A DNA stretch of 33,277 nucleotides from FCB group bacterium. GTDB lineage: Bacteria > Zixibacteria > MSB-5A5 > GN15 > JAAZOE01. A program made the translations under genes and the position numbers. Under the pieces are notes generated by a model. The model saw only the letters and a program-made list of their open reading frames with translations, was not told the origin of the DNA and did not search any database. Shown piece after piece: positions 2,841-33,277 of the stretch; position 1 is the stretch's first letter; each line of letters opens with the position of its first letter. The DNA is taken from NCBI GenBank assembly GCA_024231695.1, contig JAAEQF010000099.1, positions 1 through 33,277 of the forward strand, read 5' to 3'.

Positions 2841-2938
2841 TTTTAACTCTCCTTGTGATTGCCAGCCGCCAATCGACAGTGGCCTTCTCTGTTTTGTCCG
2901 CCTGCATTATTGCAACCGAACGGGAATTTCGCAATACG

Positions 2939-3379
2939 CTAATTTTTTGAAGCGGTCATAACTCCGTTGACGGAATGGAATTTTCGTCCACGGCCTTCTG
3001 GTTCTGCACCGATGTCCAATATCTGCCCGGTTCGTGAAAGGTTCTGTAGTGTGTAGGTCGAGCCGTCGACCGTTACTTCCGTCCTGAATACCGCGTCAAT
3101 GACGTTGGCTATGTCGTTTGCTTTTGCCCTGCCAGCAGACCGATTCCGAGAACGGACCATAATTTGAAACCCTGGATGCTCGATGTGCTCGCCTGTGTCA
3201 ATGACGCGGCCGTCAGTCCGCCCTGCCGTGTCGTAACAGACGATTGCGTCATCGTTGATATCGTCCGAGTCTGGTAAAAACGTCGCGTACACGGGCCATG
3301 CGTTGCCGCCTTGGACGGACGTGCCGAGACCTGCGTCAATCAGGAATTTCTGCACCAGTCTGGATTGTTCAATGTCCAT
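2939..3379 (-). CDS. Putative tail terminator / tail completion protein (lambda U-like position)
   Basis: A 146-aa protein directly preceding the major tail gene, called by synteny only. Confidence 0.4.
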   Translation of the reverse strand: MDIEQSRLVQKFLIDAGLGTSVQGGNAWPVYATFLPDSDDINDDAIVCYDTAGRTDGRVIDTGEHIEHPGFQIMVRSRNRSAGRAKANDIANVIDAVFRTEVTVDGSTYTLQNLSRTGQILDIGAEPEGRGRKFHSVNGVMTASKN

Positions 3380-28884: not shown

Positions 28885-29589
28885 TCATATAAACAATCGA
28901 TTCTGTCGTTGCGAAATCCTCTTTTGCGCTATCTTGAAATACTTTTCGTCGAGTTCGATGCCGATAAAGTTCCGCCCGAGTTCGAGTGCGGCAACGCCTG
29001 TGGTACCAGACCCCATGAACGGATCGCAGATCGTCATTCCTGGCTGCGTGTGAATATGAACCAGCCGCTCCATTAGCCTCTGTGGCTTCACGGTCGGGTG
29101 GTCGCCGTTCTGTGGTATCTCTTGGTTGATCCCTTCGATGACGTTACTACATTTTTTTGTTTCATCAAAGAAGTTATAGTCGTTTTTATCTTTGCACAGG
29201 ACTACGATATTCTCATACGACGGCCGGTACCTCCAGCCGAGCCCGATAAACTTACGCCAGACAAGCGTTTGGATTAAATTGAAATGTTTAATGGCTTCTA
29301 TTGTAAACAACGCAGTAACTGGCGTCTTGCCGCCGCCGCCGCCGCCGCCGCAGCAGCAGCAGCAGCAGCCCTGTGGTGTTAGAACCCTCCGCATCTCTGC
29401 AAGCCACAAGGGGAGCAGTTCAAGCCATTCATCGAAACCGTCATTTGCAATTTTTGCTTGGTGTGTCGTCCAGTTGCTTAGGAATCCGATTCCATAGGGC
29501 GGATCGGTGAGAATCATATCCACCGACCCACTCGCTATCGTTGGTAAAACATCCAGGCAGTCCCCGAGGTGAAGTTTGTATTCTTCCAT
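28885..29589 (-). CDS. DNA amino-methyltransferase (beta-class; N6-adenine or N4-cytosine) with an internal Cys6-Gly7 homopolymer insertion
   Basis: Motif IV 'ILTDPPYG' lies near the N-terminus and motif I 'ICDPFMGSGTTGVAA' near the C-terminus, which is beta-class order. 'HPTVKP' is also present. A 'CCCCCCGGGGGGG' tract is encoded by (GCC)7(GCA)6. Confidence 0.8.
   Translation of the reverse strand: MEEYKLHLGDCLDVLPTIASGSVDMILTDPPYGIGFLSNWTTHQAKIANDGFDEWLELLPLWLAEMRRVLTPQGCCCCCCGGGGGGGKTPVTALFTIEAIKHFNLIQTLVWRKFIGLGWRYRPSYENIVVLCKDKNDYNFFDETKKCSNVIEGINQEIPQNGDHPTVKPQRLMERLVHIHTQPGMTICDPFMGSGTTGVAALELGRNFIGIELDEKYFKIAQKRISQRQNRLFI
29339..29380. repeat. Perfect trinucleotide microsatellite (GCC)7(GCA)6GCC inside the methyltransferase gene
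   Basis: Read directly from the sequence. It is in frame and encodes a Gly7-Cys6 run on the minus strand. Confidence 0.9.
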
Positions 29590-29919: not shown

Positions 29920-30846
29920 TTATTTTTCCCAAAAGTATTTTCTCGGTTCGGGGTCCACCCCGATGAATTTCAGCACTTCTCGCAGCCCCAAAACGTCCAT
30001 GCAGTACTTCCACTGCTTTGGGTGTGTCTCTTTCATTCGCTGGAATCGGTTGGGCGATCCTTCGAGGTGACAGCCGAACATGCAAAACATGCAGCCAGTT
30101 CGTTTGTAGCCCATGTCGTAGACCTTGGCCCACGGGATAACTTTTTCTTTGAAGTAGTCATTGATGTCTTTATCAAGCCAGAACGCAAGAGGGGTTGAAC
30201 GGGGCTCATTCAGGCCGAACGCATTACATCCGTAAGTGCAATATGTTTGCTGCCGCCTTTCCCCTTCTTCTGCTCGCACACCGTTTATGGGATATCGCCC
30301 AGACTCTTTGACAAAACGGCCAAAGGGCTCTTTTTTCATCACATCACAGCACTTGTCGGACGTGTCAAATGGTGCTTTAATGAGCCCTAGCCATTTCTGG
30401 GATATTCTGCTGGAGGGGGACATTTTACGCCCGCCGTCGCGGTACCCCGTCAGCCTCAGCACGACCGTTGCTGTTACGCTTTTTGAATGCCGAACCTCAT
30501 GGACATACTGGGCGATTCTCTTGCTCACCACTGGATACCCATACTTCTCGATCACTGCCTTAAAATTCATCTTTGGCTTCAGCCATGTCACGTTATCGAA
30601 CGTCTTCACGAAATCCCTGATCTCAGGATATTCCAGCCCTGTATCAACAAAGACCGCTGGAACGTCGGGGTAAAGCTCTCTGACGAGGTGCAGCAGGACG
30701 GTTGAATCTTTCCCGCCGCTGAAGCTGACGTAGACCTGGCCGCACCAGTAGTTGTACCATTCGCGGATTTTCTGCTGCGACATCGTGATTTTCATGTCGA
30801 GATCGTACGCTTGTCTTATTTTCAGTTGTGCATAAGAGATTGTCAT
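29920..30846 (-). CDS. PAPS-reductase-family (PP-loop ATP-pyrophosphatase) protein with a Cys-rich C-terminal domain
   Basis: 'VYVSFSGGKDSTVLLHL' is the PP-loop SGGxDS motif of the CysH/PAPS-reductase family. The C-terminal half has Cys clusters ('KCCDVM', 'CTYGCNAFG', 'GCMFCMFGCH'). The start was set at the ATG at 30846, which overlaps the loader stop (ATGA). Confidence 0.7.
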   Translation of the reverse strand: MTISYAQLKIRQAYDLDMKITMSQQKIREWYNYWCGQVYVSFSGGKDSTVLLHLVRELYPDVPAVFVDTGLEYPEIRDFVKTFDNVTWLKPKMNFKAVIEKYGYPVVSKRIAQYVHEVRHSKSVTATVVLRLTGYRDGGRKMSPSSRISQKWLGLIKAPFDTSDKCCDVMKKEPFGRFVKESGRYPINGVRAEEGERRQQTYCTYGCNAFGLNEPRSTPLAFWLDKDINDYFKEKVIPWAKVYDMGYKRTGCMFCMFGCHLEGSPNRFQRMKETHPKQWKYCMDVLGLREVLKFIGVDPEPRKYFWEK

Positions 30847-31538
30847 TTTTCTTTCCTTCCTTCTCTTCGATAATCGCCCCAGTTGCAACCAATCTTGATA
30901 GCTCCCTCTATTAGCCGTGACCACGCTTGCACCCCGAGTAATTCAGCCGCGTTATCACCGTCCTTGGCATTGAGTGTTACCACGGTAGCGCGGCAGGCAC
31001 GATACCTCTCATCGATAAGCCGGTACAGGAACTTCACGTTGGCATCACTTAGACCGCCTGGCAGTGAAGGATCCGAGATACAAAGAACTCTTGGCACCGA
31101 ATACTCTTTGTGGATTGCAAGGTCCGATCCTCCCTCACGTCGCCATGCGTCCGCTACATCCGCGAAAAGCTGAGGGCCACTGACATAGCCGCATCCGATC
31201 AATCGCCGCGTGAACCGCCGTAGCAAGCCTACCGCGAGGTGATCCTTGCCGGTTCCCGTCGGCCCTAGAAAAATCACATTCCTTGTCGGCTCACCTGCCG
31301 CATATTCCTTGAGTAATTTAATTGCATCTGTTTGCCGTTTGTCCGTACATTCGTAATTTTCAAACTCGCAGTCCTTGTAGCGAAATCCAGCGGCTCGTAT
31401 CCACTTGTCGGAATATTTTTTATTAAACTCCGCCCTTGCTGTATCTTTTTCAGCGTCGATAATCGCAAGCTGCTCTTTTTTGTCTGCAACCTTGAATGTG
31501 CGGCTGGAGAGGATTTCGGCTAAACTCCGTTCTGGCAT
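30843..31538 (-). CDS. DnaC/IstB-like AAA+ helicase-loader protein with deviant Walker motifs
   Basis: The Walker A-like segment is 'NVIFLGPTGTGKDHLAVGLL' and the sensor-like segment is 'ATVVTLNA'. The Walker B region 'VLCISDPS' is atypical. The start was set at the ATG at 31538, which has a GGAAGGAA RBS 11 nt after the initiator stop. The upstream in-frame extension in the track is Arg/Pro-rich and overlaps the initiator gene. Confidence 0.6.
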   Translation of the reverse strand: MPERSLAEILSSRTFKVADKKEQLAIIDAEKDTARAEFNKKYSDKWIRAAGFRYKDCEFENYECTDKRQTDAIKLLKEYAAGEPTRNVIFLGPTGTGKDHLAVGLLRRFTRRLIGCGYVSGPQLFADVADAWRREGGSDLAIHKEYSVPRVLCISDPSLPGGLSDANVKFLYRLIDERYRACRATVVTLNAKDGDNAAELLGVQAWSRLIEGAIKIGCNWGDYRREGRKEK

Positions 31539-31552
31539 CTTGATTCCTTCCG

Positions 31553-32620
31553 TTAAAATGTGATGACGTGATTCGGATCGTAGGTAGTGGCCGGATCGTG
31601 GATGTCTTGTTTGTTGCGGTTCTGGTCTCGCTGGTTTGTCTGGTCCTGCCACGTTTCGGGGTCGTCGTTGTAGTTCTTCGCCTTCAGCCATCGGTGGGCT
31701 GCCTTGATAAATCCATTCTTCACACGATCACATGTGGCGTACACGGCGACGACCTCTGCCGCTTTTTCCTGATCTTCAGCGGGGAGCTTTTGCCACTCGC
31801 GGAACGCGTCGACCTTTCCTTCGTTTTTTGGATAGATTTTCCAGAACCGCTCGAAAGCATCGGTGTATTCGTTCCTGGTTCGATCTTCTGCCGGTTTTTG
31901 CAGTTTCGATGAATTACCGGCGATGGAATAATCAACCGCTGCCCGCATGTCCTCGACGGAAGGAAACCTCCTTAGAATCGCCCGTATGCGTTGCTTAGGC
32001 GATTTCAGCGGATTGTTGGTTCGTTCTAGGTATTCACACCAATCGGTCAACACGGGCGAAACCTGTGCCTTGTCCATTGACGAAGGAAAAACGATTTCTT
32101 CGAGTATCGATTCCCAACATTCCCCCTTGGGGGTTAGGGGGGTATTATTATTCTTTCCTTCTTTTAGTTCTTTCTTTCTTTCCTTCTTTACTTCTTCTTT
32201 AATAAGGGTTGTTCCGTTGATGTTCCGTTGTTGTTCTATTGATGTTCCGTGGTTGTTCCGTGGTTGTTCCGTTGATGTTCCGTCACCATCTCCGCCAGAT
32301 TGGTAAGTCCCCCAATTGCAGATAGTTACGACGGTTCTTTTATTGTTCCCTTTTACCGTTATTGCGCCAAACTTCACGAGCCGGTTCAAAACAGTTTGAA
32401 CTTTTTTTCGACTTTTGAATTCCCATTTTTTTCGTAGTTCTTCTTGTGTTACTATAAGCTGTCCTGGTTCTAATTCGACGCCGTATTCATTCCACTTCTT
32501 CCACTTTGCGAGTGCAAGTAGAGTGGCGAAAGCATATTGAGTATCTTTTCCGCTCCCCCCGATCTTGCTATTGCCAGTAAAAAGGGTTCTGTACATTTTA
32601 AACCATCCGCTATCGTCCAT
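31553..32620 (-). CDS. Replication initiator (lambda O-like organisation): N-terminal winged-helix domain, iteron-encoded linker and C-terminal domain
   Basis: Seven 11-bp iterons and a homopurine/AT-rich tract lie inside the gene, encoding the repetitive 'TEQPRNNHGTSIEQQRNINGTT...KEEVKKERKKELKEGK' linker. It sits upstream of the helicase loader. The C-terminal domain contains 'FERFWKIYPKNEGKVDAFREWQKL'. Confidence 0.65.
   Translation of the reverse strand: MDDSGWFKMYRTLFTGNSKIGGSGKDTQYAFATLLALAKWKKWNEYGVELEPGQLIVTQEELRKKWEFKSRKKVQTVLNRLVKFGAITVKGNNKRTVVTICNWGTYQSGGDGDGTSTEQPRNNHGTSIEQQRNINGTTLIKEEVKKERKKELKEGKNNNTPLTPKGECWESILEEIVFPSSMDKAQVSPVLTDWCEYLERTNNPLKSPKQRIRAILRRFPSVEDMRAAVDYSIAGNSSKLQKPAEDRTRNEYTDAFERFWKIYPKNEGKVDAFREWQKLPAEDQEKAAEVVAVYATCDRVKNGFIKAAHRWLKAKNYNDDPETWQDQTNQRDQNRNKQDIHDPATTYDPNHVITF
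32202..32278. repeat. Seven tandem 11-bp iterons (consensus GTTCCGTKGWT) with exact 11-bp periodicity; candidate replication origin
   Basis: The units start at 32202, 32213, 32224, 32235, 32246, 32257 and 32268 and were read directly. A 60-bp pyrimidine/AT-rich tract (32141-32200) flanks them. Confidence 0.7.
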
Positions 32621-32623
32621 TGT

Positions 32624-32971
32624 TTACGCCTCTTTTTGTTGGTAATCAGACCAGTTGCAGATAGTTACGACCGAATACTTGTTTGTGCTCTCGATCTCAA
32701 TTGCCCCACATTTCACCAGCTTCTTTAATATTGTGCGAGTAGACTGATCTGTCTCGCCAAACAGGCTTCCAATCTTAGCTCCTGATGTAGCTATTTGTCC
32801 GGGGCTGAGTTGCCTTCCCATGTGGTATTCCTTGCCTTCTCCCGCTTTTATTAGTAAACAAATGTACGCACCGAATACCTTGCAACCATAACTGAGGACG
32901 ACAGGGAATCCGTCAGAAGATTTAATAAACAATTCAAAATCGGCAGTGTCAACAGAACATTGAAATCGCAT
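32624..32971 (-). CDS. Stand-alone winged-helix DNA-binding protein paralogous to the initiator N-terminal domain
   Basis: 'LSPGQIATSGAKIGSLFGETDQSTRTILKKLVKCGAIEIESTNKYSVVTICNWSDYQ' aligns with 'LEPGQLIVTQEELRKKWEFKSRKKVQTVLNRLVKFGAITVKGNNKRTVVTICNWGTYQ' in the initiator. The start was set at the ATG at 32971, which has a GGAG RBS; the track start is TTG. Confidence 0.5.
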   Translation of the reverse strand: MRFQCSVDTADFELFIKSSDGFPVVLSYGCKVFGAYICLLIKAGEGKEYHMGRQLSPGQIATSGAKIGSLFGETDQSTRTILKKLVKCGAIEIESTNKYSVVTICNWSDYQQKEA

Positions 32972-32991
32972 AATTAGAAGCTCCAAATAAA

Positions 32992-33084
32992 CGAGCCCCG
33001 TAACTCACTATCCGCTTGAATCGGTAAGCGTGGCGGGCTTGAATAGCTAAGCTAGACTTGCGGACGCCAATAAGCTACGGGGCT
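32992..33084. repeat. Long-range inverted repeat GAGCCCCGTAACT / AGCTACGGGGCTC (13 bp, 1 mismatch) enclosing ~67 nt with internal palindromes
   Basis: Read directly from the sequence. It lies in the non-coding leader upstream of the replication-module genes. Confidence 0.5.
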
Positions 33085-33277
33085 CAGTCCAAATTTGAAT
33101 TGATTGGTAGAGCCGATTCTTTTGATACCCCCATCCTACACACAATTATACGTTTGTCAATACTTTTCTTCAGGATTTTCCTCACTCCTTTTCAGCCAAC
33201 CATTCGGCATGCTCTTTTCTCGTGCGATACCGAACAAACGGCGTTGTCGTCGCACTGGGTTCGCCCCTAATTGTACG

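Follow-up and report, generated by a model that had tools for sequence, protein, structure and literature searches.

We analyzed a gene in an uncultured, phage-like contig of 33,277 bp, which was taken complete from a metagenome-assembled genome listed at NCBI as "FCB group bacterium" and is hereafter called the window. The gene encodes a 355-aa protein, recorded in the database as a hypothetical protein, that we consider a putative replication initiator. Its coding sequence holds an array of 11-bp direct repeats (iterons) next to an A+T-rich tract, and together these elements probably constitute the origin of replication of the phage. The gene and the features inside it are the following, in window coordinates:

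31553-32620, minus strand: putative initiator (replisome-organizer) gene, 355 aa, assigned from PHROG matches, an AlphaFold2 model and profile homology to the SPP1 protein G38P
32211-32287, minus strand: iteron array of seven head-to-tail 11-bp units, each with the core ACGGAAC and a 4-nt spacer (ATCA, AACC or AACA)
32211-32221, 32222-32232 and 32233-32243: array units 1 to 3, GTTCCGTTGAT, GTTCCGTTGTT and GTTCTATTGAT
32244-32254 and 32255-32265: array units 4 and 5, both GTTCCGTGGTT
32266-32276 and 32277-32287: array units 6 and 7, GTTCCGTTGAT and GTTCCGTCACC
32143-32204, minus strand: A+T-rich purine tract (coding strand AAAGAAGAAGTAAAGAAGGAAAGAAAGAAAGAA...), the proposed DNA unwinding element (DUE), which encodes the K/E-rich portion of the linker
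32120-32146, minus strand: C-run/G-run element AATACCCCCCTAACCCCCAAGGGGGAA, on the distal border of the A+T-rich tract, encoding N-T-P-L-T-P-K-G-E

On the coding strand, six of the seven cores read exactly ACGGAAC and one is the variant ATAGAAC. Tandem Repeats Finder (TRF) reports the array at 32210-32283, with a period of 11, 6.7 copies, 84% matches and a score of 99. ACGGAAC occurs eight times on the minus strand of the window. Six of these copies are packed into one 73-bp stretch, where they share one orientation and keep an 11-bp phase, and only two copies are found outside the array. With a period of 11, which 3 does not divide, successive copies of the core fall into different frames and are read in all three, as T-E, N-G-T and R-N. 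A first-pass annotation of this DNA had described seven 11-bp direct repeats in exact phase, and all seven of the units that it quoted are found. The span that it gave for the whole feature (32141-32278) covers a real array but cuts its last unit; the array truly ends at 32283-32287.

The tract has an A+T content of 77%, and its coding strand consists of 87% purines (pyrimidines on the plus strand). Nowhere else in the 33-kb window does nearest-neighbor energy give a less stable segment, whether 40, 60 or 80 bp are considered (z = 3.5-4.0). The repeats had been said to be flanked by about 60 bp of homopyrimidine, AT-rich DNA; the flank is present and A+T-rich, but with 87% pyrimidine it is not strictly homopyrimidine.

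To place these elements on the protein, we used an AlphaFold2 model computed with 50 homologs. The model has a winged-helix N-terminal domain (N-domain; residues ~20-110) with a predicted local distance difference test score (pLDDT) >90, a linker at residues 111-165 with a pLDDT <50, a middle helical domain (168-233) and a confident C-terminal helical domain (250-330). The array begins 17 nt past the last codon of the motif NW..YQ. The iterons encode residues ~112-138 and the A+T-rich tract encodes residues ~139-160, and since both encode the low-pLDDT linker, the DNA elements occupy the part of the protein that is least constrained structurally. The encoded linker is rich in T, N, Q and E and then in K and E. 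The open reading frame (ORF) and the model thus agree with the earlier proposal that the array and the tract lie inside the initiator coding sequence, between the winged-helix N-domain and the C-terminal part.

Family searches bear on the function of the protein. In PHROG, the N-terminal 160 residues match "DnaD-like helicase loader" families and the C-terminal part matches "replication initiation protein" and "primosomal protein" families. Pfam gave no match for the 355-aa protein, and none for the middle and C-terminal segments at E<=5. The C-terminal domain carries the motif FW..YP...WL. Searches of solved structures, by sequence and by fold, returned only generic winged-helix matches. A hint from a BLASTP global alignment that the middle domain resembles the Phg_2220_C region of G38P was left unconfirmed.

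Conservation of the array in homologous genes

We retrieved 4965 homologs of the 355-aa protein with HMMER (E<=1e-3), all at or below ~40% identity; the best relative in phage, viral-contig and protein collections has 37% identity. Genes for the comparison were drawn in three sets. The first holds the closest homolog, present on two contigs (L001 and L002), and one other homolog (L003). The second holds 80 viral contigs found through a tight subfamily alignment, and is hence biased to one subfamily; individually fetched loci (L001, L003 and L085-L092) offset this bias. The third holds 8 further, diverse metagenomic homologs. Sets 1 and 2, with the window gene included, amount to 74 distinct genes, and set 3 brings the total to 82.

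An 11-bp-period array of at least three copies was present in 73 of the 74 genes, starting from a few to a few tens of nucleotides past the end of the N-domain (motif NW..YQ). All 8 genes of set 3 also carry such an array at the same place (one of them as two consecutive short arrays), so that 81 of 82 distinct homologous genes have it after the N-domain. Copy number ranges from 3.3 to 7.6 across the sets, with a median near 5. The sequence of the unit varies widely among genes, with examples such as CAAACGACCGA, GGGACACGAGC, TAACAAACCAT, ACCGACAAGCA, AACCAGCAACT and GGAACGATAGC. In most genes a purine-rich tract with many A residues, of the AAGAATGAA or AAGAAGGG type, comes immediately after the array, and the 60 nt downstream of the arrays average 74% A+T, as against 65% gene-wide. 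With the same TRF settings, no 11-bp array was detected in 356 kb of DNA flanking the homologous genes or in the rest of the window.

Homolog linkers look repetitive at the protein level as well, and continue into K/E-rich stretches. We compared each of 63 arrays with itself at different shifts. Mean self-identity was 0.76 at a shift of 11 bp, 0.73 at 22 bp and 0.72 at 33 bp. There is no advantage at 33 bp (11 codons), which indicates that the unit being repeated is DNA and not an 11-residue peptide. The first-pass annotation had proposed comparing homologs to see whether the number of repeats varies while their periodicity is kept, and had set against this the case of repeats that merely reflect a protein linker, with no conserved DNA periodicity. 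Copy number does vary while the 11-bp period persists in 81 of the 82 genes, and the equal identity at the three shifts is the opposite of what a mere linker would give.

The iterons also vary together with the domain that would bind them. Across the 74 genes, iteron similarity tracks N-domain identity (Spearman 0.57; partial correlation 0.57 when controlling for the C-terminal part), and it does not track C-terminal identity (partial correlation 0.04). This pattern fits a cognate pair of binding domain and site.

A second conserved feature is the AATACCCCCCTAACCCCCAAGGGGGAA element. In the L001 locus (925-951) 26 of its 27 nt are identical although the protein there is only 37% identical, and the element is near-identical in L085 and similar in L057. 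Elements of this type encode N-T-P-L-T-P-K/Q-G-E, always with CCC for proline and GGG for glycine. The CCCCC and GGGGG runs could pair into a hairpin, and a hairpin was flagged at 32122-32142. Among 149 representatives of the family, 11 have such a motif in the protein.

Among experimentally studied phages, SPP1 provides the closest case. An hhalign comparison of the 50-sequence family profile (window protein as first row) with SPP1 G38P gave a probability of 98.5% and an E-value of 2.2e-15 over 108 columns, covering the whole N-domain; pairwise BLASTP between the window protein and G38P is marginal (E 0.018, ~23% identity). In SPP1 gene 38 the coding sequence of the N-domain ends with ...IVNYEKWQ and is followed by a 4.6-copy 11-bp array (2938-2988 of locus L084, GAAACGACAC type) and then by an A+T-rich tract with a 9-bp period, array and tract spanning 2938-3027 (AACAATGAT- and AAGAATGTA-type tracts occur in cultured phages). 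StyI and HindIII sites bracket this array and tract and lie exactly 356 bp apart, a distance that matches the published 356-bp StyI-HindIII oriL fragment (PMC5737612; PMC6316719). That fragment holds the AB boxes bound by G38P and an adjacent A+T-rich DUE, and it was cloned to test the necessity and sufficiency of the region (PMC5737612; PMC6316719). It also served as an oriL-bearing template for theta replication in vitro, in a system assembled from G38P, G39P, G40P and proteins of the host (PMC5737612; PMC6316719). G38P binds two separate regions of SPP1, oriL and oriR (PMC6316719; PMC5737612).

Neighboring genes and phage context

The genes on either side of the initiator gene are the following:

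30843-31538, minus strand: DnaC/IstB-like AAA+ helicase loader (Pfam IstB_IS21, 3e-11; PHROG DnaC-like helicase loader, 6.5e-26)
32624-32986, minus strand: N-domain-only paralog of the initiator, 120 aa (BLASTP 37% identity over 78 aa, E 4e-14; PHROG DnaD-like N-domain, 5.9e-14)

The mechanically called ORF of the loader reaches 31691 and overlaps the initiator gene by 139 nt. Judging from the sequence, its start is likely the in-frame ATG at 31538, which lies 14 nt past the initiator stop and has GGAAGGAA ahead of it. From this ATG the loader would be 231 aa long, and the loaders at homologous loci measure 227-240 aa. The order of initiator and then loader recurs in loci L001, L086 and L092.

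The paralog lies directly upstream of the initiator gene and ends with ...ICNWSDYQ, which is the point where the iterons start in the full-length gene. Its putative recognition-helix residues differ from those of the initiator. When 84 loci were scanned with the family hidden Markov model, no second copy of the N-domain was found in the other loci. The paralog may regulate or compete for the origin, or else its binding site may be another one.

Upstream of the paralog, the region at 32990-33100 (minus strand), together with 33133-33160, is predicted to form a very stable long RNA fold (-50 kcal/mol, z = -4.8 relative to shuffled sequences). The region is closed by GAGCCCCGTAACT and AGCTACGGGGCTC and includes two 16-nt direct repeats, GCTTGAATCGGTAAGC and GCTTGAATAGCTAAGC. 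A sigma-70-like TTGACA-16-TAGGAT lies just upstream of it, and it has no Rfam match. The region could be a leader or an operator of the replication operon. Rfam and tRNA scans of the window as a whole were empty, and an RNA explanation for the intragenic element was dropped on that account.

The gene content of the contig is phage-like. It encodes portal and head-morphogenesis proteins, a RusA resolvase, an HK97/linocin-like capsid protein and tail-fibre-like proteins with esterase and lectin domains, as well as a DNA methylase and a PAPS-reductase-like protein. Nearly all genes of the contig are on the minus strand. The contig has no terminal repeats or circular overlap and may be incomplete. 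Its relatives are distant: at the nucleotide level the region matched none of 50,697 phage records, a protein search of the same records found only distant N-domain matches in phages of Staphylococcus aureus, a word-indexed search with the 355-aa protein returned the protein itself and one distant match only, and a scan of viral contigs with the same protein as single query returned no relatives.

One further observation concerns the methylase, which is of the N6/N4 DNA methylase type (28885-29589, minus strand). Its gene holds perfect trinucleotide runs, (GCC)x7.7 and (GCA)x6.7, at 29329-29369, so that the protein acquires the unusual insert CCCCCCGGGGGGG, in which six Cys precede seven Gly. 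This may be an in-frame tract of variable length.

A probable origin within the initiator gene

Four lines of evidence converge on one reading of the locus: its anatomy, the 11-bp periodicity and accompanying A-rich tract seen throughout the family, an N-domain homologous to that of G38P, and the gene context. On these grounds, and by analogy with SPP1, we estimate a probability of roughly 85% that the element is a theta-type origin of an uncultured tailed phage, located inside its own initiator gene and following the oriL design of SPP1. By analogy with SPP1 and lambda, the winged-helix N-domains would bind the seven ACGGAAC iterons as monomers or dimers. The 11-bp spacing would put the bound domains on nearly one face of the helix, and a continuous nucleoprotein array would result. 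Together with negative supercoiling, this array would melt the adjoining A+T-rich purine tract, again by analogy with SPP1 and lambda. The middle and C-terminal domains of the initiator would then recruit the DnaC/IstB-type loader encoded next downstream, and the loader would place a DnaB-type helicase of the host on the opened strands. The use of a host helicase is probable because none was found among the ORFs checked.

Several observations weigh against the origin reading, or at least against a close copy of the SPP1 system. Cumulative GC skew gives no independent origin signal in the window, although it is uninformative here because nearly all genes lie on one strand. SPP1 has its own DnaB helicase, G40P, and a second G38P-binding region, oriR, whereas no gene for a replicative (DnaB-type) helicase turned up in the subset of window ORFs that was checked, and the window contains no second, oriR-like iteron cluster. 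G38P carries the Pfam domain Phg_2220_C (2e-20), and the domains after the linker in the window protein are different. The loaders differ as well, G39P of SPP1 (Inhibitor_G39P match) being replaced in the window by a DnaC/IstB AAA+ protein. With other post-linker domains and another loader, the downstream steps in the window phage may differ from those of SPP1. Finally, the correlation between iterons and N-domains could stem in part from the physical linkage of adjacent parts of one gene.

The array could bind the initiator and nevertheless be a control site, acting in autoregulation, titration or handcuffing or as a roadblock to transcription of the initiator and loader genes, while unwinding takes place elsewhere, perhaps off the contig. 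Plasmid iterons commonly serve copy control too, and G38P itself binds both oriL and oriR. The possible incompleteness of the contig leaves room for a distant unwinding site, and the N-domain-only paralog upstream could join in the regulation. We nonetheless hold this to be improbable. The arrays of homologs mostly adjoin an A-rich tract of low stability, and the tract in the window is the least stable in the contig, which is the signature of an origin and not of an operator; moreover, the equivalent intragenic region of SPP1 sits on oriL plasmids that replicate in vitro, and the window has no second array.

Two other explanations deny the array a present role in replication. If the repeats were a by-product of a low-complexity, flexible linker that had expanded by replication slippage, with no function as DNA, single 11-bp expansions would shift the reading frame, but the repeat is as strong at 11 bp as it is at 33 bp. 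The period is also kept in 81 of 82 distinct homologs despite changes in both the sequence and the peptide, the 356 kb of control DNA contain 0 arrays, and the homologous repeats of SPP1 are proven initiator-binding sites. Even though the encoded segment is predicted to be disordered, its T/N/Q/E and then K/E composition is common in linkers and the homolog linkers look repetitive as protein, these comparisons largely refute the explanation, and we give it hardly any weight. An origin of the same type that has decayed or fallen silent, in a defective prophage or a mis-binned fragment, would accord with a contig from a metagenome-assembled bin labelled FCB group bacterium, without a terminal repeat and without close relatives in phage, viral-contig or protein collections (37% identity at best). 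It is very unlikely all the same, for six of the seven cores have the same sequence and keep perfect phase, the ORFs of the initiator, the loader and the structural proteins are intact, and the AlphaFold2 domains are confident.

Within the origin reading, the AATACCCCCCTAACCCCCAAGGGGGAA element may mark the boundary of the origin or may encode a peptide motif. Acting as DNA, it could be a hairpin or GC clamp that fixes the edge of the replication bubble, or an entry point for the helicase or loader; alternatively, it could merely code for TPLTPKGE. That this element acts as DNA and that the N-domain-only paralog is at the same time a trans-acting regulator of origin firing, both in addition to the iteron and DUE design, is a combination that we find doubtful.

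If the origin reading is right, the analysis places, with good confidence, a replication origin and its initiator-loader pair in an uncultured phage that lacks close relatives, which is of use for annotation, for the design of host vectors and for replication studies. It also yields a rule for G38P-like organizers, namely that an 11-bp array read in all three frames and followed by an A-rich purine tract marks an intragenic origin. The combination of array and A-rich tract held in 81 of 82 homologs, in SPP1 and in the S. aureus phage phiNM3. The rule would allow origins and their cognate iteron motifs to be called from sequence in metagenomic phages. Should the N-domain, iterons and tract behave as a portable cassette that is fused, across thousands of phage initiators, to at least three kinds of helicase-recruiting C-terminal domain, both origins and initiator specificities could be read from the sequences of uncultured phages. 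The finding leaves the current understanding of how such origins work unchanged.

Comparison with known origins

The window and SPP1 share a homologous N-domain and the same order of parts, all within the initiator gene: the N-domain (ending ...NY/W..W/YQ), the 11-bp array and the A+T-rich tract. In both, the repeats separate the N-domain from the tract, which adjoins them directly, and the loader gene directly follows the initiator gene. Apart from the differences in post-linker domains, loader, helicase and oriR given above, SPP1 has 4-5 repeats and the window seven, with the core ACGGAAC, and the host lineages differ, the window contig being binned as FCB group. As far as sequence can tell, the part common to the two is the cassette of N-domain, iterons and DUE, and not the whole module.

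A third arrangement is found in temperate S. aureus phages, for example phiNM3. Its gp23 has a homologous N-domain (tblastn ~33% identity, residues 4-135), followed at the same position by 6.7 copies of the 11-bp ACAACAAATCA and then by a AAGAATGTA-type tract (locus L093, 1844-1960). It differs in having a C-terminal DnaD/DnaB_2 domain (record annotation), and gp23 is annotated as a DnaD-like helicase loader. This suggests that the N-domain, the 11-bp iterons and the A-rich tract form a portable module, which has been joined to at least three different C-terminal domains.

The N-domain model also has its best PDB matches among RepA_N plasmid initiators (RepA of pSK41 and pTZ2162; PDB 4PT7, 4PQL and 5KBJ), but the matches are weak (Foldseek E ~0.02, template-modelling score 0.5 on the target) and of a kind that any winged helix would give. 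Pfam RepA_N does not match the window protein. RepA_N plasmids of Gram-positive bacteria have an iteron origin inside the rep gene, between the parts that encode the N- and C-terminal domains; these are plasmid and not phage systems.

The first-pass annotation had likened the locus to ori-lambda. In lambda, too, the middle of the initiator gene (O) contains the origin, between a DNA-binding N-terminal part and a loader-recruiting C-terminal part, an A+T-rich region that unwinds adjoins the iterons on one side, and the loader gene is next downstream (PMC7466680). However, lambda has four 18-bp iterons (39034-39118) whose starts are spaced by 20, 24 and 23 bp, whereas the window has seven contiguous 11-bp units, and the lambda P loader is unrelated to DnaC/IstB. 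Kinship with lambda O was considered and rejected: the window protein has no Pfam Phage_rep_O match, and hhalign against lambda O is not significant (probability 0.6%, E 0.098). One of 50 family members has a weak Phage_rep_O match (0.003). To judge by these searches, the likeness to lambda is one of design and not of descent. The origin-in-initiator design that had been claimed, with its array, unwinding tract and loader, is retained, but its nearest relative is SPP1 oriL with G38P, and not lambda O. The window element is very likely a fresh example of an established origin design, and SPP1 oriL/G38P is its closest kin.

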